Assembly (NCBI GenBank): GCA_964441695.1
Contig: CAYYKO010000002.1
Span: forward strand, 1-57,345
Direction of reading: 5' to 3'
Source: an uncultured Ruminococcus sp.
Lineage (GTDB): Bacteria > Bacillota > Clostridia > Oscillospirales > CAG-272
DNA length: 57,345 nucleotides
Each line of letters opens with the position of its first letter. Positions within the stretch are counted from its first letter, which is position 1. Positions 13,184 to 33,089 of this stretch are shown piece by piece. Position numbers and translations under genes: made by a program. Below the pieces are notes generated by a model, which was not told where the DNA came from, made no database searches, and worked only from the letters and a program-made list of their open reading frames with translations.

Positions 13184-13248
13184 TTGTCTCTCCGTGCCGC
13201 CCTTTCGGCGAGCCTTGCTTTAATTTTTCCGCTGCAATAAAACGACTC

Positions 13249-13287
13249 CTGCCGACCCCTCCGAAAAGCCTCCGTTAAGGTCGGCAG
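13249..13287 (-). terminator. Intra-operon hairpin (weak terminator/attenuator) between glgA and glgP
   Basis: 9-bp stem CTGCCGACC / GGTCGGCAG with a 21-nt loop. On the minus strand it is followed by GAGTCGTTTTATT. Confidence 0.3.
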
Positions 13288-13302
13288 AAATTATTTTGTC
13301 AC

Positions 13303-14736
13303 TCAGAGCATTGAGCTATACAGCTTAACGTATTTCTCGGCGGATGCATTCCACGAGAAGTCCACCTTCATGACGCGCCGTCTGAGCGCAGCCCACTTCT
13401 GCTTCTTTCTGTATATCTCGAGGGCGTACTCGATGACCGCCATCATGTCGTGCGCGTTATAATTTGCAAACGAGAAGCCGTTGCCCTCGCCGGTAAATTC
13501 GTTGTACGGCTTTATCGTGTCGTAGAGTCCTCCCGTTTCGCGAACGATCGGGACCGTGCCGTAGCGCGAGGCTATCATCTGCGACAGTCCGCACGGCTCG
13601 CTCTTTGAAGGCATGAGGAATATATCGCCGCCGGCGTAGAATTTCTTCGACAGCGCCTTATTGTACTCGAGGCGCACCGCAACGCGACCGGGGTGGTCAG
13701 CCGCCGCGCGGAGGAAAAAGTCCTCATATTCGCACTCACCCGTGCCGAGCACTGCAAAGGAGGCGTCCGTGTGCTCGAGAATATCGTAAAGCACACATCT
13801 CACAAGCTCAAAGCCCTTATGCCCCGCAAGTCGCGATACCATAACGATGAGCGGCTTTTTCGGGTCGGGGTCGAGTCCGCATATCTCGCACAGCTCCGCC
13901 TTGTCGCGTGCCTTGCCCGCAATTTTGTCTGCGCTGTAGCACTCGGCGATATCGCAGTCGTGCTCGGGATTGTAGTACTCGATATCGATACCGTTCGTAA
14001 TTCCGGTAAGCTTGTCGCGGCTGTCACGCAGGATGTGGTAAAGCCCGTGCGAATAATATTCCGTAAGGATCTCCGAGGCGTAGCGCTCGCTGACCGTGCT
14101 TACCATATCGGAGCAGGTAACAGCGCCCTTGAGAAGGTTGATGCATCCGTCATATTCTACCACAGAGCGATCCGTTTCGTCAAGGTCGAATACGTCGCCG
14201 AGAATGCCGAGGTCGTACTTTCCCTGATATTCGATATTATGTATCGTAAACAGCGTCCGTACATTGCAATACGGCTCGATGCCCGCAAGGCGGCGCTTCA
14301 GGTAAATTACGGCAAGCGCACTCTGCCAGTCGTTGGCATGCATAACGTCCGGGACGAAGCCGACTGTCGCCATCAGGTGCAGCACAGCCTTTCCGAAGTA
14401 AGCGAAGCGTTCTCCGTCGTCGTACTGTCCGTAGAGCATACGGCGGGCAAAATAGTACTCGTTGTCAATGAAGTACACGGTCACGCCGTCGCGCTCCGTC
14501 TTCCATATTCCGCAGTAGAGTCTGCGCCAGGAAAGTCTCAGCTCTCCCTCGGAAACACGCTCGAAGCTGTCGTCCATCTTTTCCTTTATCGCGGGATACA
14601 TGGGGATAACGACGCGGACATCCGCCTCTCCTCCGGTTGCACGGCGCACCGCGGCGGGAAGTGAGCCGATAACATCGGCAAGACCGCCCGTCGATACGAA
14701 CGGCAATGCCTCCGAGGCTACGTATAATATTTTCAT
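13303..14736 (-). CDS. glgA: Glycogen synthase (ADP-glucose type)
   Basis: 477 aa. MKILYVASEALPFVSTGGLADV... (KxGGL-type motif) and a GT5 C-terminal domain. Confidence 0.93.
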   Translation of the reverse strand: MKILYVASEALPFVSTGGLADVIGSLPAAVRRATGGEADVRVVIPMYPAIKEKMDDSFERVSEGELRLSWRRLYCGIWKTERDGVTVYFIDNEYYFARRMLYGQYDDGERFAYFGKAVLHLMATVGFVPDVMHANDWQSALAVIYLKRRLAGIEPYCNVRTLFTIHNIEYQGKYDLGILGDVFDLDETDRSVVEYDGCINLLKGAVTCSDMVSTVSERYASEILTEYYSHGLYHILRDSRDKLTGITNGIDIEYYNPEHDCDIAECYSADKIAGKARDKAELCEICGLDPDPKKPLIVMVSRLAGHKGFELVRCVLYDILEHTDASFAVLGTGECEYEDFFLRAAADHPGRVAVRLEYNKALSKKFYAGGDIFLMPSKSEPCGLSQMIASRYGTVPIVRETGGLYDTIKPYNEFTGEGNGFSFANYNAHDMMAVIEYALEIYRKKQKWAALRRRVMKVDFSWNASAEKYVKLYSSML

Positions 14737-14758
14737 TTCAATTTCCTTTCAAGCTGTC

Positions 14759-15892
14759 TCAAAGCACTCTGTCCTTGGATATGTAATACGGAAGCTCCTC
14801 GGTTCCCGAGAGCAGCCGTCCGTCTCTGATGAACGCATTCTTGTCGCTGACGACGCAATTTATATATGCTCCCTCTCCGATGTAGCTGTCCTGCATGATT
14901 ATCGAGTTGCGGACGGTCGCGTTGCGGCTGACCTTGACTCCGCGGAACAGTATCGAATTCTCGACCGTGCCCTCAATGCGGCAGCCGTCGGCGATGAGTG
15001 AATTGCGCGCTTCGGAGTCGTTGCTGAAATACGTCGGCACCGAGTTTCTGATCTTCGTGTAGATCGGGCGGTTCTTCACGCCGAATATGGCACGGCGGAA
15101 GCTGTCGTCGCCGATAAGCTGCATGCTGTACTTGAAGTAATCCGCGAAGGAACGAATGCAGGCAAAGTGTCCGTCGTATCTGTAGACGGCGAACTTGTGT
15201 GTGTTCAGATTTCTCAGCACAACGTCGCGCGTCATGCTCGTGTAGCCGTGCGCGATGGCATCAAGCACCGTCTGCTGTAAAAATCTCGTGTTCACGACGG
15301 TAATGTTGAGTCCGACGTCGGCGCGACCCGAGAACTTCTTCGGGAAGGCGAGCACATCTGTGACAAAGCCGTTGTCGTCGGAGTAGTATATCGTGCTCGA
15401 CTCCGCCTCCTTTTCCGTAAGGTCGACGCTCTTGACCGCCATTGTCATCTCCGCGCCGCTCTCCTTGTGGAACCTTATTATATCGTTAAAGTCGACATTG
15501 CACACGACATCGCAGTCGGACATTACGACATAGTCGGCGGTCAGTCTGCCGAGAATGTAGCTGACGCTCTTTAACGCCTCAAGGCGGGAGGTGTAGAGCG
15601 AGTTTGCCGCGTTCGCATATGCCGTGATATACGGCGGCAGAATTTTAACGCCTCCACTGCGCCGCGCGAGATCCCAGTCCTTACCGCTTCCGATGTGATC
15701 CATGAGCGACTGGTAATTATAATGCGCAATGACGCTGATATCGAAAATATTGGAGTTTACCATATTGGAAAGCGCGAAATCTATGAATCTGTATCTGCAA
15801 CCGAAGGGCACAGAGGCGACCGTTCGTCTGACGGTGAGCTCGGGCAGATTGGAATCGTGTATATTAGAAAAAATAATTCCTGTGGCTGACAT
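14759..15892 (-). CDS. glgD: Glucose-1-phosphate adenylyltransferase, GlgD (regulatory) subunit
   Basis: 377 aa paralogue of GlgC lacking the GGxGxRL motif (starts ...GIIFSNIHDSNLPELT...) with a left-handed beta-helix C-terminus. Position between glgC and glgA is typical of Firmicutes. Confidence 0.88.
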   Translation of the reverse strand: MSATGIIFSNIHDSNLPELTVRRTVASVPFGCRYRFIDFALSNMVNSNIFDISVIAHYNYQSLMDHIGSGKDWDLARRSGGVKILPPYITAYANAANSLYTSRLEALKSVSYILGRLTADYVVMSDCDVVCNVDFNDIIRFHKESGAEMTMAVKSVDLTEKEAESSTIYYSDDNGFVTDVLAFPKKFSGRADVGLNITVVNTRFLQQTVLDAIAHGYTSMTRDVVLRNLNTHKFAVYRYDGHFACIRSFADYFKYSMQLIGDDSFRRAIFGVKNRPIYTKIRNSVPTYFSNDSEARNSLIADGCRIEGTVENSILFRGVKVSRNATVRNSIIMQDSYIGEGAYINCVVSDKNAFIRDGRLLSGTEELPYYISKDRVL

Positions 15893-15946
15893 TTGATTCT
15901 CCGTTCTTCCGCTGTTGTGCGGTTTATTTTGATAGCTTTGCGGGGG

Positions 15947-17149
15947 TTACTTATTTTGCGCGAGCCACTCGCCGTTTACCATTGCCCCGCCGGGGATATT
16001 TGCATTGTCTTCGAGCTCAAGCGAGCAGCCGACTACCGTTATCGCGTCGCTCATGGTCTTCGTGCGTCCTACGACGCAATTCGCACCGATCTTCGTGTTC
16101 TCGTCGATTATACTGTAGTTTACCGTCGCGCCGGCTCCGATGTGAACGCCGCTCATGATGACGGAGTCCTTAATATACGCGCCGCGCTCGACCGTTACTC
16201 CGCTGAAGAGTATCGAGTTTTCGACGATTCCCTCAATGTCGCAGCCCTCTGTGATGAGCGAATTCGAGATCTTCGCCTTTTCGCCGACGTGCTGAGGCGG
16301 CATTGCGGTGTTGCGCGAGTAAATGCGCCAGCTCTTGTCCTTGAGATCGAACACGGGGCTCTCGCCGAGCAGATCCATATTCGCCTCCCAAAGCGACGAT
16401 ATCGTTCCGACGTCCTTCCAATAGCCGTGGAAGGGGTAGGCGAACATCTCGCGTCCGTCTGCGAGCATCTTCGGAATTATATTCTTGCCGAAGTCGTTCG
16501 AGGAGGCAGGGTCTGCCTCGTCCTCGGTCAGATATTTCTCAAGCAGCGCGCGGTTGAATATGTAGATTCCCATCGAAGCGTTTGTCGACTTCGGGCGCGC
16601 GGGCTTCTCCTCGAATTCGAGTATTCTCATGTCGTCATCGGTATTCATAATGCCGAAGCGGCTCGCCTCCTCGAGGCTCACGTTGAGCACCGCGATCGTG
16701 CAGTCGGCGCCCTTTGCGATATGCTCCTGAAGCATCGCATTGTAATCCATCTTATATATGTGGTCGCCGGAGAGGATGAGCACGTAATCCGGGTCATATC
16801 TGTTGATAAAGTCGAGGTTCTGGTAAATTGCGTTTGCCGTGCCCTTATACCAGTCCGCGCCGTTTTTTCCCTGATACGGCGGGAGAACCATAACTCCGCT
16901 CTGCATGCGGTCGAGGTCCCACGGCTGTCCGTTTCCGATATATTCGTTGAGCACGAGGGGCTGATACTGCGTCAGCACGCCCACCGTATATATGTGGGAA
17001 TTGACGCAGTTTGAAAGCGGAAAATCGATTATACGGTATTTGCCGCCGAAGGGTACTGCGGGCTTTGCTGTTTTTTCCGTAAGCGTATAAAGTCTGCTTC
17101 CCTGTCCGCCGGCAAGGAGCATTGCTACGCATTGCTGCTTTTTGTACAT
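15947..17149 (-). CDS. glgC: Glucose-1-phosphate adenylyltransferase
   Basis: Canonical N-terminus [24 protein letters not shown].... I trim the 450-aa ORF to the ATG at 17149 (400 aa). The 50 extra upstream codons overlap the glgB 3' end and look non-coding. Confidence 0.92.
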
Positions 17150-17171
17150 AGTCTGCACCGCTCTTTCTGTT

Positions 17172-19172
17172 TTATTTTTTGTTATTTGAATCCGTTTTGC
17201 GTCGGGTATTCGCTGTTTTTCTTGCGCTGCGCTTCCTTGGAGCCTTCTTTTTTCGAAGTATGATTCCCGAAAGCGCGGGTAAGCTGAAGGTGAGCACATC
17301 GCGTCCGTCAGCCTCTCGAACGGAGGAGGTCAGCACCTCGCCGATGTCCGTTCCGCTTCCGCCGTACATGTACATATCCGAGTTTATAAGAACCTCGTAT
17401 TCGCCGGCGTCGGAGAGCTCGAGCACAAAGCCGTCTCTGCATATCGGAGAGTAATTTATCACCGCGATAAGCTCGTCTCGCGCGGCGTCAAGGCGGCTAT
17501 AGGCGACCGTATTAATGTCCGCCGAGTCGGCATATATCCACTCGAAGCCGTCCCAGCCGTCGTCGATCTGCCACAGCTGCGGCGAGTCGAGATAAACGTG
17601 ATTAAGCTCGCGAACAAAGCGCTGCATCTCGGTGTGCCGCGGGTATTCGAGCATGAACCACTCAAGCTGCTCCTTCTCCGTCCACTCGCGGAACTGCGCG
17701 AATTCGCAGCCCATAAAGGTCAGCTTCTTTCCGGGGAGCGTCATCATGTTGACAAGGAAGGCTCGCATTCCCGAGAACTTCTCGTCGTAGGAGCCGTACA
17801 TCTTGTCGACAAGCGAGCGCTTACCGTGGACGACCTCATCGTGCGACACGGGAAGGATGTAATTCTCCGTGAAGGTGTACATCAGCGGGAAGGTGAGCTT
17901 TGTGTGGCTGTACTGCCTGTATATCGGGTCGGTCGCAACATATTCAAACATGTCGTTCGCCCAGCCCATGTTCCACTTGAAATTAAAGCCGAGTCCTCCG
18001 ACGTCGACGGGCTTCGTTATCATCGGCCACGAGGTCGACTCCTCTGCTATCATCAGCGCATCGGGAAATTCGGCGAACACCGCCGTATTCAGCTTTCTGA
18101 AGAAGGCTATAGCCTCGAGATTTTTGTTATCCCCGTCAGAGTTCGGCACCCACTCGCCGGGCTCTCTGTCGTAATCAAGGTAAAGCATAGACGCCACCGC
18201 GTCCACGCGAAGACCGTCAATGTGGTAGCGCCTCATCCAGAACAGCGCGTTTGAGATAAGGAACGACTGCACCTCGCAGCGTCCGACGTCAAAGCAGCGC
18301 GTGCCCCAGCCTCGATGCTCCATGCGGTCGCGCCCCTGATACTCGTACAGCGGCTCGCCGTCGAATTCGTAAAGACCGTACCTGTCCTTCGGAAAATGCG
18401 CCGGGACCCAGTCGAGTATTACGCCGATGCCCGCGCGGTGGAGCCTGTCGACGAAATACGCGAAATCCTCGGGAGTTCCGTATCTTGCGCTCGGCGCAAA
18501 ATAGCCTGTGACCTGGTAGCCCCACGAGCCGTCGAAGGGGTGCTCCGCTATCGGGAGCAGCTCGACATGCGTGTAGCCCATGTCCTTGACATACGCGGCA
18601 AGCTTCCTTGCCGCCTCGCGGTAGGAGAGGTAATTCTCGCCGTTCTCCGTGCTCTTTCCGTCCTTGGTGCGCCACGAGCCGAGGTGCAGCTCGTAGATGT
18701 TCATCGGCGAGGCGTAATAATGACCCGCGCGCACATCCTTCTTCGAGCGCTCGGCGCGACGTCGCAGCCACGCGTTATCGTGCCAGACAAAGGAATCGGT
18801 ATCATAAACCACTGATGCGCTCTCGCCGAGCGTCTGCGCGGAAAACGCATAGGGGTCAGCCTTAAGATATGTAGCTCCGTCGGCGCCCGTTACTGCGTAT
18901 TTGTAATACATTCCGTTAAAGGAGTGCGTGCCCTCGAGCGAGGTCTGCCAGACGCCCGCCTCACTCGCGCGTTCCATTGCCCGCGGCGCGTCCCAGGAGG
19001 TAATGTCGCTCGCGAGAGCCACGCCTCGCGCATTCGGCGCCCAGACGCGGAAGATGCAGGTATATTTCTCGCCGTCGAAGGTCTCGTGCGCGCCGAGATA
19101 TTCGTATGACGCAAAATTCGTTCCCTGGTGGAACAGGTATGCCTGAAGCTTTTCGGATTCTGTATTTTTCAT
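17172..19172 (-). CDS. glgB: 1,4-alpha-glucan branching enzyme
   Basis: GH13_9 motifs ...[11 protein letters not shown]..., ...[13 protein letters not shown]..., ...MIAEEST..., ...[11 protein letters not shown].... Start placed at ATG 19172 (MKNTESEK...), preceded by GGAG. The C-terminal about 28 aa are Lys/Arg-rich. Confidence 0.92.
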
Positions 19173-19254
19173 GCCATCTCCGTTGATACTTTTAATTATA
19201 TTCGCCTCCGCGCCGAAAAGCACGCGGAAGCTGTCGTCTCAAAAAACTTTCGCT

Positions 19255-24073: not shown

Positions 24074-26203
24074 TCAGTGCTCGTTCTGCTCTATCACCAT
24101 TTGCTGCCACTCGCGGTCAAGCGTTACAAAGCGTGCATTCCATCCGGAGACGCGCACCGAAAGCGTTTCGTAGTTTTCGGGATGCGCCTGCGCCTCACGA
24201 AGCACTGCCGCGTCGACAACGTCGGGCTGCATGAAAAAGCCTCCGAGCGCGACAAAGCCGCGTATCAGTCCACACAGTGCCGAAAGTCCCGCCTCGCCCT
24301 CGACGTTCGACGGCAGGAGCTTTATGTCAAGCGCCGCGCCATTTGCGATCTTTTCAAGGTCGATCTTGCAGTACGAACGTATCTCGGCAGTCGCGCCGGT
24401 CTTATCCGTGTTCGGTGTCGGGGAGCAGTTTGCCGCCAGAATCTCTCCCGCGCGTCTGCCGTGCGGGCACGCGAGTCTCTGCGGAGACCACACAAGCTGA
24501 CGGCCGAACGTGCTGACTCCCGCGGGGAAACGGTAGCCGCTTCTGCCGTTATAGCTTTGGCAAATATCGGCGAAATCCGAGAGCATTCTCACAGCTATCG
24601 CATCAACCTCGTCGTTATCGTTTCCGTAATAATCGTAGTTTTTAAGCGCGTACTGTCTGAGAGCTTCCTCGCCCTCCCAGTTGTTGCGAAGTATCTTCAT
24701 AAGCTCGGGAAGAGTCAGCTTCTTCTCATCGTACACAAGCTTCTTTATCGCGTAAAGGCTGTTGACCGTGTCGGCAAGTCCGCCGATATGAGGTGAAATG
24801 AGATTATAAACAGGTCCGCCCTCGAGGTATGAGAGCCCCTTTTCGATGCATCCCTCCTCAAAGATCGAAACTACCGTGCACGGTGTACGCTCGATCCATT
24901 TCGAGTTTTCCGCGCAGTCGCCCATGACAGCAAAAAGCTCATCGTACACATGGTACTTTTCATCGACTCGCTCGCGCAGACCCTTTACGTATTCGCAGTA
25001 AAGCTCCTCAAAGGTATCAAAGCTTACATCGTCTTCATAGCCGCCGAGCGTTTTCTGCTGCAATACCTGAAGGGCGTCAAAGGGATGATAGGAGAAGAAG
25101 GTCTTTCCGGGGATCTGCACCTCCCAGCAGCCGTCGTTTGCGAATTTTCTCGCCTCGCGCTCGTCGTAGCCATCTCGCACAAGCGCGCGGATGATAGTTT
25201 CCTCATTATACACGGCAAGCGTGCCGCCGCCGTAGCGCATGACCTCTGCCACACGGCGGATGAGCTTTTCATCTGTCTTCGAATTCACGCGCACCGTCGT
25301 CGGGAAATCGCTGATGCCGAGCTCCTCGATTACGTCGAGGACAAGATATGTCACCTCGTTTGTGACCTCGTTGCCGTCTTCATCGATTCCCGCAAGCAGG
25401 AGATTTTGATAATGCTGTGCGTCACCGCTGCCTATATCCTCTCCGTTTATCCACTCACAGCCCTTGATAAAGAAATGCGCCAAAATTTCGCGTGCCTCGT
25501 CGAGCGTCAGCTTTCCGCTCTCAAGATCGCGCTTCAGATAATCTCCGAGCAGGTAGTCAATACGTCCGATGCCCGGCCAGTTTCCCGTGAGACGGATAAA
25601 CGCAAACGTAAACCAAATGCTCTGCACCGCCTCATAGAAGGATGTGGGCGTCTCAAACGGGACGCGCTTCAGGTTTTCGTAATTTGCGCGATATTCGGGA
25701 AGCTCGCGGAGTGCGTCGAGGTACCGTCCGTGCCAAACCTCAAAGGCATCGATACAGTTCAGACAGCTTTTTGCAAAAGCTTCCTTTTCGCTCCCGCGAT
25801 ATTTTTCGTATGCACGACGCGACTTTTCCCTTATATATCCGACACCGTGCTTTAATACCGTCTCGAAATCGGCAGTCAGGTGGCTCTGGCTCTCGCACAG
25901 GCGTGAGCCTTTATAATCTGCCGGCACGGAATGACTTATCGCCTTGCCGAGCGTCGCCGCTCCGCTCAGCTTCTCCCCCTCACAAATGCGAATCGGTGCT
26001 TCCTTTGCGATCTTCATTATCGCGATGTCGTACTTTTCTATCTTTGAGAGCGAGTCAAAATTCGGTATGTCGTCGAGGACAACGGCACTGCACTTCAAGG
26101 TGTCCTTGCCGTATTTTCTGCCGAGCGAGTCATGTGCAAAGCGTCGTGTCGCCTCTGACAGTCTCACCGGTCTTTTGCCTCCGTTTTGAGTGTAAAACTC
26201 CAT
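24074..26203 (-). CDS. Glycyl radical enzyme, PFL2/dehydratase-like family, unusually short (709 aa)
   Basis: C-terminal glycyl-radical motif ...TLSVRVSGWNARFVTL... (Gly codon 24143-24145). Thiyl loop ...FANDGCWEVQIPG... (GCxE pattern). Start placed at ATG 26203 (MEFYTQNGG...), 5 nt after GGAGGTG. Confidence 0.88.
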   Translation of the reverse strand: MEFYTQNGGKRPVRLSEATRRFAHDSLGRKYGKDTLKCSAVVLDDIPNFDSLSKIEKYDIAIMKIAKEAPIRICEGEKLSGAATLGKAISHSVPADYKGSRLCESQSHLTADFETVLKHGVGYIREKSRRAYEKYRGSEKEAFAKSCLNCIDAFEVWHGRYLDALRELPEYRANYENLKRVPFETPTSFYEAVQSIWFTFAFIRLTGNWPGIGRIDYLLGDYLKRDLESGKLTLDEAREILAHFFIKGCEWINGEDIGSGDAQHYQNLLLAGIDEDGNEVTNEVTYLVLDVIEELGISDFPTTVRVNSKTDEKLIRRVAEVMRYGGGTLAVYNEETIIRALVRDGYDEREARKFANDGCWEVQIPGKTFFSYHPFDALQVLQQKTLGGYEDDVSFDTFEELYCEYVKGLRERVDEKYHVYDELFAVMGDCAENSKWIERTPCTVVSIFEEGCIEKGLSYLEGGPVYNLISPHIGGLADTVNSLYAIKKLVYDEKKLTLPELMKILRNNWEGEEALRQYALKNYDYYGNDNDEVDAIAVRMLSDFADICQSYNGRSGYRFPAGVSTFGRQLVWSPQRLACPHGRRAGEILAANCSPTPNTDKTGATAEIRSYCKIDLEKIANGAALDIKLLPSNVEGEAGLSALCGLIRGFVALGGFFMQPDVVDAAVLREAQAHPENYETLSVRVSGWNARFVTLDREWQQMVIEQNEH

Positions 26204-26224
26204 GTTATCACCTCCGATGATATG

Positions 26225-26253
26225 ATTATACAGTACAAAGCTATTAAATTCAA
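26225..26253 (-). promoter_or_regulatory. sigma-A promoter for the glycyl radical enzyme gene
   Basis: Minus strand: TTGAAT (26253-26248), 17-nt spacer, TATAAT (26230-26225). Confidence 0.55.
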
Positions 26254-26282
26254 TTGACATTTCCGCACAATACATGTATAAT
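26254..26282 (+). promoter_or_regulatory. sigma-A promoter for the AraC regulator, back to back with the GRE promoter
   Basis: Consensus TTGACA (26254-26259), 17-nt spacer, TATAAT (26277-26282). Confidence 0.6.
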
Positions 26283-26300
26283 ACTATTGAGGTGAGTCAT

Positions 26301-27092
26301 TTGAAAATAAGCAGCGTAAATATACGCTATTTTAAGAAGGACGGCTTTTACTCCGTTCCGAACGAAGGCGTCACTCATGTGAAGGTACTGCCCTGCCTTT
26401 CCGTCGTTCAGTCGCTCGAGGGACATTACGACATCACGCTCGGCGGAGGGGATAAAATGCAAACGACGGACGGCGGATTTTTCATTGCTCCGGCAGGCGT
26501 GCAGCAAACAATAACGCACCACATCAACGAAAAAAGCGGCAGGATGAGCTGCCGCTGGATATTTATCGACGCGCGGATAAACCGCGAGCTTTCGCCCGAC
26601 TCGCTTTATACCTTTCCGACGGTGATAAACGGCGACGAGCGGCATGAGCTGAACTCGATTTTCGAGAGATTATTCGCGACCGACGACGCATTTGAAAATC
26701 ACGCGGACTGCTGTCGGCTTCTCGGATACCTGACAAAGCTCGGAAAAGAAGCGAAGGAGGGCTCTCACGGCGGGCTGAAAACGGCTCTCTCGTATATATC
26801 CGAGCACTACACCGAGCACATCACCGTAAAAATTCTCGCAGAGGCTTCGAATATGTCGGAATCAAATTTTTACGCGCTCTTCAGAAGGCACGTCGGCACG
26901 TCGCCGATAGCATATCTGAACAGCTACCGTCTTTCCGTTGCAGCCGATGCACTGACACAAAGCACGCAGAGCATCAAGGAGATAAGCTTCTCCGTCGGTA
27001 TCGACGACTCGATGTATTTCAGTCGGCTCTTTCGCAAAACCTACGGTGTGTCGCCGAGTGAGTACCGCGCACTGTACAAAAGCCGCACGTGA
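26301..27092 (+). CDS. AraC family transcriptional regulator
   Basis: Cupin-like N-terminus and a C-terminal double HTH: ...ILAEASNMSESNFYALFRRHVGTSPIAYLNSYRLSVAADAL...IKEISFSVGIDDSMYFSRLFRKTYGVSPSEYR.... Start moved to TTG 26301 (GAGGTG 6 nt upstream) because ATG 26274 lies within the promoter spacer. Confidence 0.85.
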   Translation: MKISSVNIRYFKKDGFYSVPNEGVTHVKVLPCLSVVQSLEGHYDITLGGGDKMQTTDGGFFIAPAGVQQTITHHINEKSGRMSCRWIFIDARINRELSPDSLYTFPTVINGDERHELNSIFERLFATDDAFENHADCCRLLGYLTKLGKEAKEGSHGGLKTALSYISEHYTEHITVKILAEASNMSESNFYALFRRHVGTSPIAYLNSYRLSVAADALTQSTQSIKEISFSVGIDDSMYFSRLFRKTYGVSPSEYRALYKSRT

Positions 27093-27186: not shown

Positions 27187-28536
27187 TCACTGAATGTCTG
27201 TAAATTCTCTGATATCAGCACCGACAGAATTGACAACAGCATCCTTCGGAGTCGTGCATACGGTATTTCCCTCGGAATCGATGATAGCAAACACATCATC
27301 CTCGATCTCCGAATACGCGTATCCGTCGGCATAGTAGTTCGAGATATCGTAAAGTCCCTTGTCTGAAAGCACGAAGACGATCTCGAGCTTCGAGTTTATG
27401 ACAACCTTCTCGAACTCCTTACGCTCACAGTCCGTTCTGCCAAGATCCGCCCACACGATATCCACGGTCTTGCCGTCCTCATCAAGGTATACGGGAGAAA
27501 CGCAGAACATTCTGTCGGCGATCATAACAGGCTCGGTGCATGCAAAGCCTCTGAGATCGGTGCTTGTCATCTGCAAGACCTGTTCGCCGGACTCGTTGTA
27601 ATAAGTGAAGCTTTTCTTACCGCTGCGCGCCCACACAGATTCGGTGAAGTCGATACGCATCTCGGTTTTCGCTTCAGAGACCTTGTTCCACGAGGTGTCG
27701 TAAAAGGCACCGTCGTAATATGCGAGTCCGTTGTCGCCGAAGCCGTATCTCGACCACTTATTCGGGTTGTATTCGGGAATGGTTATCACCCAGTTACCCT
27801 CGGCGTCGATGTAGCCGGCTTTCTTTTCGTTCTTATCCTCTATGGCGCAAAGTCCGTGAGTTATCGCATTCTGACCGAGGAAGATGCCCTCCTTCGGCTC
27901 AACGACCCATTCAAAATCACTGTTTAACAATCCGTAAGCCTTATTAAAGCGTCCGGCGACCGCATAGCCCTCGTCGCTGAATTCGTTAAGGTAATCGCAG
28001 CCCTCGATTATAACGTGCTCAAAGCCGTTTTCGCCTTTGTGGAAGTAGCCCTTCTCCTCTCCGTCGGCGCCGTCGAGCACTATCGTGGCAATGCCGCTTG
28101 AGGAAAACCTTCCGACGTCCTTGTAAACGGTGTCTGTCACATACTCGCCGTTCAGATCGATGCATCTCCAGCCCTCGCCCTTCTTAAAAACAAAGGCTAC
28201 TCCGTCGGGGCCGAAGCTTTTCACAGCATCGTAAACGGGTTCGATGTACCACTCGCCGTTCATATTCATGTAGCCGGCACCTCCTCCATCTTTAAGGTGT
28301 ACCGGAACGATTCCGAACTGGAACAGCGCGCCCTTCATGTATGTTCCGGACGCCGTGGGCTTTTCGTCCGTGCTCTCGCCCTCGCCCTCGCCGTTCTCCA
28401 CGCTTTCGGTCTGTCGGTTGTCGCCTGCATTTGCCGAGTCCTCCGCGTCGTCAGAGCCGTTCGAGCCGCAAGCGGCAAGCGACAGTGCCATCGCTCCGAC
28501 CAGAAGCCACGACACGATTGTCTTTCCGAGCTTCAT
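27187..28536 (-). CDS. Lipoprotein with WG-containing (KWG-like) beta-propeller repeats
   Basis: Signal peptide with lipobox ...GAMALSLAAC|GS.... An acidic low-complexity linker, then repeated ...G.W..I...G..V....Y..V... units (for example AGYIDAEGNWVITIPEY, GEGWRCIDLNGEYVTDTVYKDV). Confidence 0.8.
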   Translation of the reverse strand: MKLGKTIVSWLLVGAMALSLAACGSNGSDDAEDSANAGDNRQTESVENGEGEGESTDEKPTASGTYMKGALFQFGIVPVHLKDGGGAGYMNMNGEWYIEPVYDAVKSFGPDGVAFVFKKGEGWRCIDLNGEYVTDTVYKDVGRFSSSGIATIVLDGADGEEKGYFHKGENGFEHVIIEGCDYLNEFSDEGYAVAGRFNKAYGLLNSDFEWVVEPKEGIFLGQNAITHGLCAIEDKNEKKAGYIDAEGNWVITIPEYNPNKWSRYGFGDNGLAYYDGAFYDTSWNKVSEAKTEMRIDFTESVWARSGKKSFTYYNESGEQVLQMTSTDLRGFACTEPVMIADRMFCVSPVYLDEDGKTVDIVWADLGRTDCERKEFEKVVINSKLEIVFVLSDKGLYDISNYYADGYAYSEIEDDVFAIIDSEGNTVCTTPKDAVVNSVGADIREFTDIQ

Positions 28537-28680: not shown

Positions 28681-28710
28681 TATATATCAAGCAAAACTGC
28701 GACCTTACAA
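28681..28710 (-). promoter_or_regulatory. Candidate promoter for the lipoprotein gene
   Basis: Minus strand: TTGTAA (28710-28705), 18-nt spacer, TATATA (28686-28681). The -35 lies inside the right palindrome. Confidence 0.35.
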
Positions 28711-28733
28711 AAAAGTACACCTTTTCGTAAAGC
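28703..28733. repeat. Right copy of the paired palindromic element
   Basis: CCTTACAAAAAAGTACAC CTTTTCGTAAAGC, an imperfect palindrome centred on GTAC. 28703-28720 is the reverse complement of the left element (16/16 matches, then a 1-nt indel). Confidence 0.65.
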
Positions 28734-28761
28734 CGCCGTTTTTGCAGGCTACTTAAATATC

Positions 28762-28824: not shown

Positions 28825-31323
28825 TTACTTGTTGAGTCCAAGCCTCTCTGCGGCATCCTCGCGCATTTTGTACTTGAGAATTTTGCCCGCCGCGTTCATC
28901 GGGAACGACTTTACGAATTCAACGTATCTCGGCACCTTATGACGCGCCATGTGAGAGCGAATGTACTCCTTCATCTCGTCGGCGGTCATCTCCTCGCCCT
29001 CCTTCAGGATAATGCACGCCATGATCTCCTCGCCGTACTGCTTGTCGGGCACGCCGATGACCTGAACGTCCTTGACCTTGGGGCAGGTGTAGATGAATTC
29101 CTCGATCTCCTTCGGATAGATATTCTCTCCTCCGCGGATGATCATATCCTTGAGTCGACCCGTGATGCGGTAATTGCCGTCGGCGTCGCGTGCGGCAAGG
29201 TCTCCCGTGTGGAGCCAGCCCTCGCTGTCGATGGCAGCCGCCGTGGCGGAGGGCATCTTGTAGTAGCCCTTCATTATATTATATCCGCGTGCAACGAACT
29301 CGCCGTTTACTCCGTCGGGACAATCCTCTCCCGTCTCGGGGTCGACGATCTTGCACTCGACATTCGCGAACGCGCTTCCGACAGTCTCCGTTCTCACGTC
29401 AAGCGACTCGTAATAGCTGCTCATCGTGCAGCCGGGGCTCGCCTCCGTCTGACCGTATACCGAGACGATCTGCTTCATGTTCATCGTCTCCGTAGCCTTT
29501 TTCATCAGCTCCGCGGGGCAGTTCGCGCCCGCCATGATACCCGTGCGAATGTGCGAGAAATCTGTCTTTTCAAAGTCGGGATGCTGCATCATCGCAATAA
29601 ACATGGTCGGCACGCCGTTGAAGCACGTGATCCTCTCCTGATTTATGCAGGCGAGAGCCGGCTTCGGTGAGAAATACGGCAGCGGGCACATCGTAGCACC
29701 GTGCGTCATTGATGCTGTCATCGAGAGCACCATTCCGAAGCAGTGGAACATAGGCACCTGTATCATCATACGGTCGGCGGTCGAGAGATCCATGCGGTCT
29801 CCGATGTACTTACCGTTGTTTACGACATTGTAGTGGGTGAGCATGACTCCCTTGGGGAAGCCCGTCGTGCCTGAGGTGTACTGCATATTGCAGACGTCGT
29901 TGCGGTCAACGGCGGCAGCCATGCGGCGAAGCTCGGATACGGGGACGTCCTCGTAGCGCTCCTCAGCCTGCTTCCAGGTGAGGCAGCCCTTCTGCTTGAA
30001 GCCGACCGTGATAATATTGCGTAAGAACGGCAGGCGGCGGCAGTGGAGCGGATGACCCGCGCGTGCGGTAAGCGTCTCGGGGCAAAGCTCGGCAACTATC
30101 GCGCCGTAGTCTGTCTCCTTCGTGCCCTGAGTCATGATAAGCGTGTGCGTATCGGACTGGCGGAGCAGATACTCGAGCTCGTGTATCTTGTATGCGGTAT
30201 TGACGGTAACGAGCACCGCGCCGATCTTTACCGTTGCCCAGAACGAGATGTACCACTGCGGCACGTTTGACGCCCATACTGCAACGTGGTCTCCCGCCTT
30301 GACGCCGAGAGAGATGAGGCTTCGTGCGAAGCGGTCGACGTCGTCGCGGAACTCGCTGTAGGTACGTGTGTAATCGAGAGTCGTATATTTGAAGGCGTAC
30401 TGATCGGGGAAGTCCTCGACCATGCGGTCAAGCACCTCTGAGAAGGTAAGGTCGATAAGGTCGTCCTTCTTCCAGACAAAGCGACCGGTGTGCGTCTCGT
30501 TGTAGTAGAAGCTCTTTTCGTTCTGAGAGGGGTCGCCGAACTGTCTCATGTAATTCTGGAACTGCGTGAGCACGGTCTCCATGTCGTCAAGCTCCTCGCA
30601 CCATGCGGGATCCCAGACGAGCGATACAAAGCCGTCGTAATTGACGCTTCTGAGCGCGGACACGATCTCGCGCACGGGCAGCTCGCCTTCGCCGGCGAGG
30701 CGATATTCGGCAACGCCGCCGGTCGCGTCGATATCGCTGAAGTGCACGAGCCTGACGTATGCGCCGAGGTTCTTTATTATGACCTCGGGATCCTTCTCGG
30801 CGAAATATGCCTCGGAAACATTCCAAAGTGCGCCGACGCTGTCGCTTGCGAAGCGGTCAAGCGTCTCGCAAAGGCGTGCGCTGTCGCGATAAACACCGGA
30901 GGTTTCGAGCAGGAGCGTAACACCAAGCTCCTCGGCGCGCGGGAGCACCCTCTCGATAAATGCCTCAACGCGCTCGACTCCGTCCTCGTCGTCACCGCAG
31001 CAGCTTCTGAAGCGGATGTACGGAATATGCAGAAAGCGTGCTATCTCGAAGCATCTTTCAGTCTCCTCCACAGCCGTATCGGTCGTGCCCTCGGCTGAAA
31101 TATCGCAGATCGTATCGATGCAGGGAACGGTAAGCTCGCGGTCGTAGAGCATACGCTGCGTCGACGCCGCGGAATAATCGTGAAAGGCTCCGTCACGGTC
31201 GGTAAAGAGAGCGCCGTTTACGTTATGCAGCTCGATTCCGTCGAACTTGAGGTCGTGAGCGATATTGCAAAAATCCTCAAAGCTGCAATCATGCCAGCCC
31301 TTTGTTGAAAAAGAAAGCTTCAT
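28825..31323 (-). CDS. Fusion protein: N-terminal xylose-isomerase-like TIM barrel (sugar-phosphate isomerase/epimerase family) plus C-terminal AMP-forming acyl-CoA synthetase/ligase
   Basis: 832 aa. Residues 1 to about 270 (MKLSFSTKGWHDCSFEDFCNIAHDLKFDGIELHNV...LLLETSG...VRLVHFSD...) form an AP-endonuclease-2/XylA-like TIM barrel. From about residue 285 come the ANL-superfamily motifs: ...QYTSGTTGFPKGVMLTHYN..., ...YGQTE..., ...GWLHTGDLA...RLKDMIIRGGENIYP..., ...AAGKILK.... Confidence 0.85.
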   Translation of the reverse strand: MKLSFSTKGWHDCSFEDFCNIAHDLKFDGIELHNVNGALFTDRDGAFHDYSAASTQRMLYDRELTVPCIDTICDISAEGTTDTAVEETERCFEIARFLHIPYIRFRSCCGDDEDGVERVEAFIERVLPRAEELGVTLLLETSGVYRDSARLCETLDRFASDSVGALWNVSEAYFAEKDPEVIIKNLGAYVRLVHFSDIDATGGVAEYRLAGEGELPVREIVSALRSVNYDGFVSLVWDPAWCEELDDMETVLTQFQNYMRQFGDPSQNEKSFYYNETHTGRFVWKKDDLIDLTFSEVLDRMVEDFPDQYAFKYTTLDYTRTYSEFRDDVDRFARSLISLGVKAGDHVAVWASNVPQWYISFWATVKIGAVLVTVNTAYKIHELEYLLRQSDTHTLIMTQGTKETDYGAIVAELCPETLTARAGHPLHCRRLPFLRNIITVGFKQKGCLTWKQAEERYEDVPVSELRRMAAAVDRNDVCNMQYTSGTTGFPKGVMLTHYNVVNNGKYIGDRMDLSTADRMMIQVPMFHCFGMVLSMTASMTHGATMCPLPYFSPKPALACINQERITCFNGVPTMFIAMMQHPDFEKTDFSHIRTGIMAGANCPAELMKKATETMNMKQIVSVYGQTEASPGCTMSSYYESLDVRTETVGSAFANVECKIVDPETGEDCPDGVNGEFVARGYNIMKGYYKMPSATAAAIDSEGWLHTGDLAARDADGNYRITGRLKDMIIRGGENIYPKEIEEFIYTCPKVKDVQVIGVPDKQYGEEIMACIILKEGEEMTADEMKEYIRSHMARHKVPRYVEFVKSFPMNAAGKILKYKMREDAAERLGLNK

Positions 31324-31341: not shown

Positions 31342-32727
31342 TTACGCGTTGTGCTCCTCGTAAACTATCTTGTTTACGGCGTTAATGTATGCTCTGATGC
31401 TTGCGCCGACGATGTCCGTGGACACGCCGTTTCCGGAATACAGTCTGCCCTCGAAGCGAAGCTTTACGACTGCGTTTCCGATAGCCTCCTGACCCTCCGT
31501 TACGGAGCGGATCATAAAGTCGTCAAGCTCGTAGCTGCTTCCTGTTACCTGACCTATCGCGCGGAAGGCGGCGTCGATCGGACCGTCACCGAGAGAGACG
31601 CCGACAAGCGTGCGTCCGTCGCGCTCGAGCGTGATCTGCGCGCTTGAATTGATAATATTGCCGTTGTTTACAACGTAGCTGACAAGCTTATAGGAATCGG
31701 GCACCTGGAGCGCTACCGAGGCGACTATCGCCTCAAGCTCCGCAGAGCCGACTCTCTTCTTCTCGCCGACGCGTCCGATCTCCTCATGAACGCGGGCGCA
31801 GTCCTCATCGGACAGATCGTAGCCGAGTCGTGCGACAGCAGCGGCAACACTTTCAACGGTGTCGGAGGCGTCAAGGCTGACTCCGTCGTTTTCGTCTGCC
31901 GACGGCGCGCCGACTGTCTTCTCGCTCTTTGCGCTTCCGGTAATGCGGCGAAGCTGCTCGGTTATTCTGTGAAGCTCTGTATAAGTAATGTCGGAGGAGA
32001 TGCCGAAGCTCTCTCCGCAGTTTTTGACAAGTGTCGCGAAGGTCTCGGTCTGCGCGCTCTCGCCGTCAACGGCGCACTTGACAAACGATACGCCGCGGCA
32101 AGCCGCCATCGTGAGGGAGGCTACGGCAAGACCGTTTTTGTCGGAGCAGGACGCACCGACGGGAACACCGGCACAGGAGGCAACGCTCTCTGTGAAGGCT
32201 GCAAATGCGTCGGGGAGCATTTCGGCGGCGCTGTCGCAAACGCTGACATAAGATGCTCCGGCGTCAACTGCCGTGCGGATAGCATCGTCAAGGAAGCTCC
32301 TTTCGGCTCTTGTCGCATCAACGGCGCAGAACTCAACCTCGGCGACGTGAGACACTGCAAGCTTTACCGACTTTTCGATCCACTCAAGCATCGCGGCGGG
32401 CTTCTTCATCATGAAGTACTCCATTCCGACAGACGAGGTGGGGAGTGCGATTTTAATTCTCGCGCGGGGCGCCGAGCTGAGTGCGGCAGCGGCATTTTCG
32501 ATGCTCTCGGCGGAGCTTCCCGCAGCGACGGAAAGTGTGCTGTTTTTTACAAAGGATGACGCTGTACGCACCATCAGTATATCACTTTTGGGGTTGGCGA
32601 TCTCGGGCAGCTCGATAATATCGCACCTCATGCGATCGAGCTGGCGGATGATCTCGAGCTTCTCCTTAAAGCTGAAGCTTCTGTCCTCACGGCAAAGCGT
32701 GGCATCGGCAATTTTGACCTTGTTCAT
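31342..32727 (-). CDS. 2-isopropylmalate-synthase-like protein with degenerate active site (HMGL-like barrel plus LeuA_dimer regulatory domain)
   Basis: 461 aa, collinear with LeuA. It has DATLCREDR where LeuA has DTTLRDGEQ, and ...GASCSDKNGLAVAS... where LeuA has ...HCHDDLGMAVAN... (both His replaced by Ser). The C-terminal ...GDGPIDAAFRAI...AIGNAVVKLRFEGRLYSGNGVSTDIVGASIRAYINAVNK... retains the LeuA allosteric domain. Confidence 0.8.
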   Translation of the reverse strand: MNKVKIADATLCREDRSFSFKEKLEIIRQLDRMRCDIIELPEIANPKSDILMVRTASSFVKNSTLSVAAGSSAESIENAAAALSSAPRARIKIALPTSSVGMEYFMMKKPAAMLEWIEKSVKLAVSHVAEVEFCAVDATRAERSFLDDAIRTAVDAGASYVSVCDSAAEMLPDAFAAFTESVASCAGVPVGASCSDKNGLAVASLTMAACRGVSFVKCAVDGESAQTETFATLVKNCGESFGISSDITYTELHRITEQLRRITGSAKSEKTVGAPSADENDGVSLDASDTVESVAAAVARLGYDLSDEDCARVHEEIGRVGEKKRVGSAELEAIVASVALQVPDSYKLVSYVVNNGNIINSSAQITLERDGRTLVGVSLGDGPIDAAFRAIGQVTGSSYELDDFMIRSVTEGQEAIGNAVVKLRFEGRLYSGNGVSTDIVGASIRAYINAVNKIVYEEHNA

Positions 32728-32774: not shown

Positions 32775-33055
32775 CGAAAAAGAAAAGCCCTGAAATCGGA
32801 TAATCCGACTTCAGGGACGAAATGCTTCGCGGTACCACCCTGTTTACCGTCAAGAAAAAACGGTCAACTCGTCAGAGCTCAGGCAAGCTCCCGGTCATGA
32901 TAACGGGACCGTCCGTAGCCGTTTACTGTAATTCGACGACTCTGCTCCGAAATGAGACTTCACATCCACCGCCAATATCGGCTCGCACCTGCCGCCGACT
33001 CTCTGAAATGTGGCAAAGCGGAGGAATAATTCCATCAACGCATTTGAATAAGTTG
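32775..33055 (-). promoter_or_regulatory. T-box riboswitch leader, probable Leu (CUC) specifier
   Basis: Minus-strand elements in order: UGCGUUGAUGG (GA/K-turn), AGAGAG bulge, GGUGCGA distal loop, GAAGU-CUC-A specifier loop (CUC = plus-strand 32954-32956) closing on UUUCGGAGCA, T-box sequence AACAGGGUGGUACCGCG (core at 32828-32840), and a terminator stem at 32788-32816 plus U-run. Confidence 0.8.
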
Positions 33056-33060
33056 CCGTT

Positions 33061-33089
33061 ATTATACCACCGCTCGCCCGACTTGTCAA
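33061..33089 (-). promoter_or_regulatory. Consensus sigma-A promoter for the T-box operon
   Basis: Minus strand: TTGACA (33089-33084), 17-nt spacer, TATAAT (33066-33061), with TGg extended -10. Confidence 0.65.

Follow-up and report, generated by a model that had tools for sequence, protein, structure and literature searches.

Which function is placed under leucine control when a leucine-specifier T-box precedes two genes that belong to none of the canonical leucine operons? This question is raised by a stretch of 57,345 nucleotides (nt) from an uncultured Ruminococcus sp. (contig CAYYKO010000002.1, positions 1 to 57,345; hereafter the window), in which a T-box leader on the minus strand is followed by a gene for a degenerate relative of LeuA, which we call pseudo-LeuA, and by a gene in which a TIM barrel is fused to an acyl-CoA synthetase (ACS), designated here the TIM::ACS fusion. 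A preliminary description of this DNA had proposed that the operon is not a canonical leucine operon and that leucine starvation induces an uncharacterised function. The second proposal is borne out by the uninformative database names of the proteins ('hypothetical protein' or 'AMP-binding protein') and by the literature searched, where we found no description of them. The first holds for the gene content and can now be refined, as related genomes make a leucine-supply role, with leucine formed from isovalerate, very likely. We propose, as the best explanation overall and one that we consider moderately probable, that the operon is the leucine arm of a T-box-partitioned route from branched short-chain fatty acids to branched-chain amino acids.

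It has long been known that Clostridia which degrade fibre in the rumen and gut depend on branched short-chain fatty acids and convert them to valine, isoleucine and leucine. Allison, Bryant and colleagues reportedly followed this conversion in rumen bacteria by classical labelling, and to our knowledge neither the acid-activating enzymes of the pathway nor their regulation have so far been pinned to genes. The module described here points to the missing leucine-specific step of this old rumen pathway. T-boxes switch genes on when their cognate tRNA is uncharged, and the specifier codon of the leader therefore acts as a built-in label, linking to leucine an unnamed gene pair that occurs in no fewer than 517 species representatives, and to valine and isoleucine two sister ACS genes of related genomes.

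A leucine-specific T-box leader and its operon

A scan with the Rfam covariance model RF00230, the check proposed in the preliminary description, gave a significant match at 33047-32810 on the minus strand, with 106.4 bits (gathering threshold 93) and an E value of 1.5e-22; the window has no other T-box. The alignment covers the whole model (positions 1-219), and the full-length leader (32810..33047) runs from Stem I through Stem II, the IIA/B element and Stem III to the antiterminator. When the minus strand was read directly, every landmark that had been named was found where it had been placed. Stem I (32942..33042) contains the K-turn, the specifier loop, the AG bulge and the distal loop; at its base the K-turn strand GCGUUGAUGGAA pairs with UUUCGGAGC, AGAGAG lies at 33004-32999, and GGUGCGA forms the distal loop (32989-32983). 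The T-box sequence AAACAGGGUGGUACCGCG (32845-32828) belongs to an antiterminator (32812..32845, from the sequence, RF00230 and folding) with a bulge of 7 nt, UGGUACC, whose UGGU occupies 32837-32834. It is followed by an intrinsic terminator (32778..32816, minus strand), detected by a terminator scan and by folding, which consists of a 13-bp stem (32816-32788) and a U-run and has a folding energy of -27.5 kcal/mol (z=-3.84), equalled by none of 200 shuffled sequences. Terminator and antiterminator are mutually exclusive, since CCCUG lies both in the 5' arm of the former and in the 3' strand of the latter. The folding energy of Stem I as a single sequence is no better than that of shuffled sequences (z=0.22) and is therefore uninformative, and for this stem we rely on the covariance model and on covariation: in 69 distinct homologous leaders, compensatory changes affect 18 of the 24 pairs predicted by RNAalifold, and the helix just 3' of the codon covaries, being GGAA/UUCC in some leaders and GAAA/UUUU in others. 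We regard it as virtually certain that the leader is a classical transcription-attenuating, leucine-responsive T-box; as an RNA it is unexceptional among T-boxes.

The assignment to leucine rests on the register of the specifier loop, which reads GAAGU-CUC-A. The RF00230 alignment sets CUC (32954..32956, minus strand) in the codon columns, followed by a purine, A, at 32953, which places the codon at the specifier position as had been predicted. In 69 distinct Stem I sequences read in the same covariance-model register, the homologous specifiers are CUC (64) or CUG (5), both leucine codons, and a purine directly follows the codon in all sequences but one (68/69). The CUC register is the only one of the five tested that gives a single amino acid; the registers reading GUC (Val), UCU (Ser) or UCA (Ser) were rejected, as the amino acid then changes among homologues. 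According to the T-box rule, a UGGU bulge predicts a discriminator A73 on the tRNA. The earlier argument that A73 is compatible with tRNA-Leu stands, and its weight is reduced by the fact that A73 fits tRNA-Val and tRNA-Ile equally well, hence does not discriminate among the three.

The predicted switch follows from this architecture. With charged tRNA-Leu, the 13-bp terminator would form and transcription from the strong promoter would halt before the genes. Uncharged tRNA-Leu would dock its anticodon (GAG) on the CUC codon of Stem I, and its free 3' NCCA end would pair with the UGGU bulge and stabilise the antiterminator, allowing the polymerase to read into the two-gene operon.

The limits of this operon are clear. 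A sigma-70-type promoter (33061..33089, minus strand; TTGACA at 33089-33084 and TATAAT at 33066-33061) was read directly and recovered by a promoter scan, with 12 of 12 consensus matches, a spacer of 17 nt and an extended -10 element (TG-n-TATAAT). The terminator of the preceding gene (33133-33108, terminator scan) lies ahead of this promoter and thus isolates the T-box transcription unit from the upstream gene. Promoter and T-box are followed by gene 1 (461 amino acids, aa), a gap of 18 nt, gene 2 (832 aa) and an operon-closing terminator with a 17-bp stem and a T-run (28699..28736, minus strand, terminator scan). The T-box would govern a discrete operon of two genes, bounded by terminators.

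The pseudo-LeuA and TIM::ACS proteins

Gene 1 (31342..32727, minus strand) encodes pseudo-LeuA, recognised by the Pfam families HMGL-like (88 bits) and LeuA_dimer (103.7 bits). Its HMGL-like TIM barrel (aa 1-265) is without the metal ligands of LeuA, while its C-terminal allosteric domain is nearly complete (approximately aa 341-461, nt 31342-31707, minus strand, profile positions 3-130 of 131). The protein scores below half of the cut-off of every NCBIfam model for 2-isopropylmalate synthase (IPMS), citramalate synthase and homocitrate synthase, the best IPMS model being NF002086 (244 bits against a cut-off of 532). Compared with the Neisseria meningitidis IPMS (3rmj), the motif FDTTLRDGEQ has become IADATLCREDR and HCHND has become SCSDK. 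The Arg-Asp pair is thus replaced by Cys-Arg and HCH by SCS, which means that the metal ligands are not kept, and the GERAGN and HESGIHQDG motifs are lost. This is a property of the whole family: a search without a word index gathered more than 100 representatives of 50%-identity clusters, about 460 aa long and 36-57% identical, all of which lack the HxH motif kept in the canonical LeuA representatives P0383, P0386 and P0389. The LeuA motif residues that are kept in at least 90% of the family are D8, T10, D137, A138 and R140 (an EDAxR-like motif) and D165. The preliminary description was therefore right in calling this protein a catalytically degenerate LeuA, as the metal ligands and catalytic motifs are gone both from the window protein and, for HxH, from its relatives.

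Pseudo-LeuA nevertheless retains the general structure of LeuA. Its AlphaFold model (pLDDT 83.7) shows an IPMS-like barrel and a LeuA-type regulatory domain, with a disordered stretch where the catalytic subdomain would sit, and Foldseek matches it to IPMS/LeuA structures, including the leucine-bound LeuA of Mycobacterium tuberculosis (3fig). The barrel superimposes on those of 3rmj and of M. tuberculosis LeuA (1sr9, 3fig) with a root-mean-square deviation of about 2 A over about 275 residues at 24-28% identity, and the C-terminal allosteric domain has the same fold. The two proteins differ in that pseudo-LeuA has lost the Arg-Asp of DTTLRDGEQ, both His of HxH, GERAGN and the HESGIHQDG subdomain, is about 50 aa shorter, and is always paired with the TIM::ACS fusion, the pairing of LeuA with leuBCD being not seen. 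No canonical LeuA was found in 88 sequences (the window and 87 loci, about 1 Mb), where only pseudo-LeuA matched, at about 30% identity. In the wide pseudo-LeuA family the proportion of positions conserved at 90% or more is 26% in the allosteric domain against 5.7% in the barrel. Pseudo-LeuA is, judging from these losses, probably no longer catalytic and keeps the LeuA allosteric domain. Because LeuA_dimer is the best-conserved part and the model matches leucine-bound 3fig, we tentatively suggest, as a possibility that we hold to be short of probable, that pseudo-LeuA is a leucine sensor: it would supply a leucine-binding allosteric domain as the feedback-sensing partner of the ACS. These proteins form a large family of LeuA-derived pseudoenzymes in which only the allosteric domain is well conserved, and could exemplify the shift of a regulatory domain between non-homologous pathway entry enzymes.

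Gene 2 (28825-31323, minus strand) encodes the fusion, in which, as had been proposed, Pfam recognises AP_endonuc_2, AMP-binding and AMP-binding_C domains. The N-terminal part (aa 1-272; 30508..31323, minus strand) is a xylose-isomerase-like TIM barrel (AP_endonuc_2, 68.6 bits against a cut-off of 31.1). Its AlphaFold model (pLDDT 87.8) resembles Art22, AsbF and ketose 3-epimerases (Foldseek TM-score about 0.78, identity at most 19%). Profile alignments to Art22, MJ1311, AsbF and SCO6571 place the metal tetrad at E140, N168, H194 and V236, so the window protein has no complete Glu-Asp-His-Glu tetrad, two of the four ligands being replaced (N168 and V236). In 121 fusions, D168 always occurs with E236 (36 proteins) and N, Q or E168 always with V or T236 (85 proteins), a pattern indicating that the metal site was lost in a coordinated way within one sub-clade, to which the window belongs; this clade has lost half of the site, yet has kept the operon and its T-box. 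The fused domain has the same fold as the xylose-isomerase-like metalloenzymes (ketose 3-epimerases, AsbF dehydratase, Art22 isomerase) and shares with them the first Glu and the His-x-x-Asp region; it differs by its fusion to an ACS and by the replacement of the Asp and of the last Glu by Asn and Val in 85 of the 121 fusions. Compared by sequence with PDB, the fusion matched generic ANL ligases only, with no match for the TIM part, and the profile search and Foldseek gave for that part only generic sugar isomerase, epimerase or dehydratase folds at 19% identity or less, from which no function can be transferred. A stand-alone AP_endonuc_2 protein encoded beside an ACS in locus L081 was considered as a close relative of the fused barrel and rejected, since the two have one 62-residue local match only. 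In the most economical model, which on this point is speculative, catalysis is left to the ACS, pseudo-LeuA would sense leucine as its partner, and the fused barrel would be mainly a structural or docking module.

The C-terminal part of the fusion (aa 286-832; 28825..30468, minus strand) is an ACS domain of the ANL adenylate-forming type (AMP-binding 323.6 bits, AMP-binding_C 69.6 bits). Its core motifs, read from the translation, are intact: YTSGTTGFPKG, YGQTE, HTGD, GRLKDMIIRGGENIYP and AGKILK. They include the P-loop-like TSGTTGxPKG, YGxTE and TGD signatures, the hinge GRxxD and the catalytic Lys of motif A10. Among NCBIfam models, PRK12583 ('fatty acid CoA ligase family protein') comes closest, with 672.7 bits, below its cut-off of 832.

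Related genomes and a proposed leucine arm of branched fatty-acid assimilation

Relatives of gene 1 were collected by a scan with one genome per species, which yielded at least 517 species representatives with pseudo-LeuA, and 80 of these loci were fetched. Almost all come from metagenome-assembled genomes (MAGs) of Acutalibacteraceae, Oscillospiraceae and 'Ruminococcus', mostly Oscillospirales, from ruminants or other gut sources. The TIM::ACS fusion directly follows pseudo-LeuA in all 80 loci, where gene 1 is 54-73% identical to that of the window, the TIM part 50-77% and the ACS part 72-91% (75-91% except for a fragmentary match in L053). A T-box core, GGUGGUACC(G/A)CG, is present upstream in 74 of the 80, and the 13 such leaders that were scanned score 114-130 bits with RF00230. 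The association extends to distant members of the family: the fusion still follows pseudo-LeuA proteins of 48% and 39% identity, which have enough upstream DNA to reveal T-boxes with CUC and CUG specifiers, and next to a member of 36% identity, where the following gene is cut off at the contig end, it is seen at the level of the first fusion domain. The association of a leucine T-box with pseudo-LeuA and TIM::ACS is, as this conservation indicates, old and under selection.

The genes that surround the module suggest what it is for. The open reading frames of the 80 loci were clustered, and the upstream count was limited to the 55 loci with at least 2.5 kb of upstream DNA. In 34 of these 55, the branched-chain 2-oxoacid:ferredoxin oxidoreductase (VOR), the aminotransferase IlvE or both lie directly upstream of the module. 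This co-directional block encodes an ACS, a 221-aa P-loop protein, a small ferredoxin, the alpha, beta and gamma subunits of a 2-oxoacid:ferredoxin oxidoreductase and, usually, an aminotransferase. The alpha subunit passes the NCBIfam VorB model (538.8 against a cut-off of 399), a ferredoxin delta subunit of VOR is present in related clusters, and the aminotransferase passes the branched-chain aminotransferase model PRK13357 (476.6 against 307). MbcS is the best match of the upstream ACS (408.8 bits), whose full-length form is a fusion of a helix-turn-helix (HTH) domain, a cupin and an ACS. These proteins are about 760 aa long and combine an XRE-type HTH, Cupin_2 and an MbcS-like AMP-binding enzyme (for example L081:3211-5505, L088:1638-3926, and L089:1611-3896 and 1-1217), often as tandem paralogues; it is unusual for an ACS to be fused to a DNA-binding or sensor domain. 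The P-loop protein (L045:1128-1793 and homologues) has a weak CbiA/ParA/NUBPL-like match, is always encoded between the valine-controlled ACS and the VOR ferredoxin subunit, and might assist VOR as an Fe-S cluster or maturation factor.

The sister ACS genes have T-boxes of their own. In locus L089 a second T-box precedes an HTH-cupin-ACS gene, with GUA in the codon columns of the covariance model. We fetched 80 metagenomic loci around HTH-cupin-ACS genes and parsed the T-boxes in all 169 loci with a regular expression that requires the K-turn, a 4-bp helix and the AGAGA box. This parser left 15 leucine-side and 28 valine/isoleucine-side T-boxes unparsed and mis-called two (AGC and GGC), so its counts are lower bounds: at least 64 CUC and 7 CUG specifiers before pseudo-LeuA, and at least 36 GUA and 22 GUC (valine) and 22 AUC (isoleucine) specifiers before HTH-cupin-ACS. 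The AUC and GUA registers were confirmed by the covariance model in L097, and several of the parsed T-boxes reach the Rfam gathering threshold. The common gene order is an isoleucine T-box, ACS1, a valine T-box, ACS2, the P-loop protein, VorDABC and IlvE, then the leucine T-box with its own promoter, pseudo-LeuA, TIM::ACS and, in part of the loci, an Amidohydro_2 gene. The isoleucine, valine and leucine T-boxes occur in that order in L105 (cores at 966, 3641 and 10643) and in L162 (6272, 8915 and 11584), and in L105, L162, L104, L089 and L097 up to three same-strand T-boxes, each before a different ACS gene, surround VorDABC-IlvE. Within these large clusters the leucine module keeps its own near-consensus promoter, as in the window. 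In L081, L011, L016, L023, L035 and L053, which have no leucine T-box, pseudo-LeuA starts about 124 nt after ilvE (in L081, ilvE ends at 9876 and pseudo-LeuA starts at 10001), and in this minority the module appears to be transcribed with the upstream valine-controlled genes.

Our preferred reading brings these observations together, and a role of the operon in leucine supply via branched fatty-acid assimilation seems to us likely. The fused ACS would convert isovalerate to isovaleryl-CoA, the committed leucine-specific step; VorDABC, run as a reductive carboxylase, would convert isovaleryl-CoA to 2-oxoisocaproate; and IlvE would transaminate the latter to leucine. VorDABC and IlvE would be common to the three arms of the system, for isoleucine, valine and leucine. 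The gene context makes isovalerate, or a closely similar acid with the leucine skeleton, the probable substrate of the fused ACS. The direction of VOR is inferred from the T-box control: since a T-box means induction on starvation, the valine- and isoleucine-controlled ACS genes, VOR and IlvE would work towards the amino acid. That leucine is formed in the rumen by carboxylating isovalerate is well established (PMC7356843). Purified Staphylococcus aureus MbcS activates 2-methylbutyrate and isobutyrate, isovalerate being a poor substrate (PMC10026030), which offers a simple reason for a separate ACS in the leucine arm. These enzyme assignments are directly testable, and they bear on the supplementation of ruminants with branched fatty acids and on amino-acid cross-feeding in the gut.

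A more elaborate version of this proposal, which is possible and rather doubtful, is that pseudo-LeuA and TIM::ACS form a new kind of complex, in which the ACS would be placed under leucine feedback through the allosteric domain of a dead IPMS, the two degenerate TIM barrels docking with each other, and in which the isoleucine, valine and leucine T-boxes would define the pathway genes. If this were true, tRNA charging and allostery would provide a two-layer regulation of a pathway of rumen and gut Clostridia that has been known for about 60 years.

Several observations weigh against isovalerate assimilation as we propose it. The proposed substrate of the ACS is deduced from gene context: no NCBIfam equivalog model of an ACS subfamily of known substrate is passed, the nearest solved relatives are feruloyl-, malonyl- and fatty-acyl-CoA ligases, which are silent on isovalerate, and the identity of 72-91% across families is unusually high. 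The window contains no VOR, IlvE or Amidohydro_2 gene in its 57 kb, and its link to the pathway is made by homology to other genomes. Where VOR and IlvE are present they lie behind a valine T-box, so that starvation for leucine only would not obviously induce them. The leucine T-box core is missing in 6 of the 80 loci (in one of them, L046, only 23 nt of upstream sequence are available). Finally, extra chemistry is hinted at by the intact E-D-H-E TIM site of about 30% of the fusions (36/121) and by an Amidohydro_2 gene directly downstream of the fusion in 47 of 61 loci. The latter, which is part of the leucine operon where it occurs (for example L031:9889-10698), encodes a protein of 269 aa that carries the metal signature HxH...D. 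A match to the Rfam family STnc490, an enterobacterial family of Hfq-binding small RNAs, lies just 3' of the Amidohydro_2 gene in a Clostridia MAG (L088:13373-13486, the same as L055:10746-10859; 68 bits against a threshold of 56), an odd taxon for this family.

The hints of extra chemistry bear first on the possibility that the ACS salvages another leucine-related acid (2-hydroxyisocaproate or isocaproate, for example, or a precursor in conjugated or lactone form), with barrel and amidohydrolase processing a compound from which leucine would be released or rebuilt. The conserved association with an intact metal-dependent Amidohydro_2 protein, the intact barrel site in some 30% of the fusions and the leucine T-box control would all fit such a salvage. 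However, the window and many other loci have no amidohydrolase, the dehydrogenase or dehydratase that it would need is not conserved nearby in the ORF clusters of the 80 loci, and the parallel valine and isoleucine T-box ACS genes beside VOR and IlvE point to three simple branched fatty acids, which together make this possibility improbable.

That the window operon stands alone, without VOR or IlvE, could instead mean that the isovaleryl-CoA it makes serves mainly to prime the synthesis of iso-odd branched-chain fatty acids, sparing scarce leucine, as MbcS does in S. aureus. The neighbouring ACS genes in related genomes are MbcS-like, and MbcS serves membrane fatty-acid synthesis (PMC10026030). 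Nevertheless, a T-box senses tRNA charging, that is, the demand of protein synthesis; 34 of the 55 loci adjoin VOR and IlvE, which are needed for an amino acid and dispensable for a lipid route; and control of the sister ACS genes by valine and isoleucine T-boxes favours a role in supplying amino acids. We consider a role in lipid priming quite unlikely.

Equally unlikely in our opinion is a new route from the valine branch to the keto acid of leucine (from 2-oxoisovalerate or isobutyryl-CoA to the leucine skeleton), which would replace LeuA, LeuCD and LeuB with re-tooled barrels, pseudo-LeuA, the TIM barrel, the ACS and Amidohydro_2 acting together. The position of the module directly after the valine-controlled ACS-VOR-IlvE genes is reminiscent of leuABCD after ilv genes, and no canonical LeuA was found in the 88 sequences. 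Amidohydro_2 (PF04909) enzymes include decarboxylases, and this family is encoded in 47 of the 61 loci; the conserved D8, T10, D137/A138/R140 and D165 of the pseudo-LeuA barrel and the full E-D-H-E site of 36 of the 121 fusions also speak for such a route. On the other hand, the whole pseudo-LeuA family is without the three metal ligands of LeuA and without its acetyl-CoA/enolisation subdomain, the module holds no redox enzyme, the strongest constraint is on the ACS and the allosteric domains rather than on the barrels, and the clade of the window has neither two of the TIM ligands nor Amidohydro_2, yet keeps the T-box and both genes. As for the idea that the T-box match itself is a chance or decayed element without a regulatory role, which the shuffle-like folding energy of Stem I (z=0.22) and the six loci without a core could suggest, it is already effectively refuted by an E value of 1.5e-22 with a score above Rfam's curated threshold, by the perfect promoter and strong terminator, and by the compensatory changes and leucine-only specifiers in 69 leaders and in relatives of 39-48% protein identity.

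Relation to known systems and other features

The best counterparts of the leader are canonical leucine T-boxes. The ilv-leu leader of Bacillus subtilis is a leucine-specifier T-box of canonical leucine genes. A leuA T-box predicted in Geobacter is read by tRNA-Leu(GAG) (PMC2700814), and the window leader belongs to the same RNA family, with the same CUC specifier, the same logic of induction by uncharged tRNA-Leu and the same architecture, from Stem I to a UGGN antiterminator that competes with a terminator. The cargo is different, a degenerate LeuA and a TIM::ACS fusion taking the place of leuA/leuBCD, leuS or a transporter, and in relatives of the window the leucine T-box lies downstream of isoleucine and valine T-boxes in a three-switch cluster. 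MbcS resembles the proposed activity, being an AMP-forming short branched-chain ACS that channels external branched fatty acids into metabolism (PMC10026030), but the window ACS belongs to another subfamily (25% identity to the MbcS-like neighbour of the related clusters, best model PRK12583) and, unlike MbcS, is fused to an N-terminal TIM barrel and has pseudo-LeuA as its partner. The product of MbcS goes into lipids, while modules of the window type sit in a context of amino-acid synthesis. With rumen reductive carboxylation (PMC7356843) our proposal shares the chemistry, from isovalerate to isovaleryl-CoA, 2-oxoisocaproate and leucine, and the habitat, as ruminant gut MAGs dominate the loci; the labelling work defined the physiology, and genes and regulation lay outside it. 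In the literature searched we found no description of the operon, of amino-acid-specific T-box control of this kind, of HTH-cupin-ACS or TIM::ACS fusions, of pseudo-LeuA or of the three-switch cluster. What appears to be new here is the cargo and the three-switch cluster, while the T-box regulon, the ANL ligase and the LeuA allosteric domain are of known kinds.

By tblastn, neither VOR subunits, IlvE, the P-loop protein nor Amidohydro_2 were found in the 57 kb of the window, the sole match being the ACS domain itself. Twenty other window genes were annotated; they have housekeeping roles (glycogen genes, lexA, proBAC, ftsZ), and none is a leu or ilv gene. The slot directly 3' of the operon terminator, which in most relatives is that of the Amidohydro_2 gene, is taken in the window by a gene for a lipoprotein-like protein of 449 aa with WG beta repeats (27187-28536, minus strand). 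Further downstream, a pyruvate formate-lyase (PFL)-like glycyl-radical enzyme of 733 aa (24074-26275, minus strand) lies next to an AraC-family regulator on the opposite strand (26274-27092, plus strand), the starts of the two genes overlapping by two bases; an adjoining activase gene was not noticed. The window has no tRNA gene, only a transfer-messenger RNA gene at 986-1363 on the plus strand (Rfam 169 bits), with the tag peptide ANNNRVAVAA according to ARAGORN. Among the related loci, L089 has an ordinary flavin mononucleotide (FMN) riboswitch ahead of an ECF-transporter component gene (17395-17525), and a cobalamin riboswitch, also ordinary, was detected in a neighbouring locus (L091:3212-3435). 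The glycogen cluster of the window (8883-19223, minus strand) encodes branching enzyme, glycogen synthase, glycogen phosphorylase and an alpha-amylase-family protein, and also holds two ADP-glucose pyrophosphorylase-like genes.

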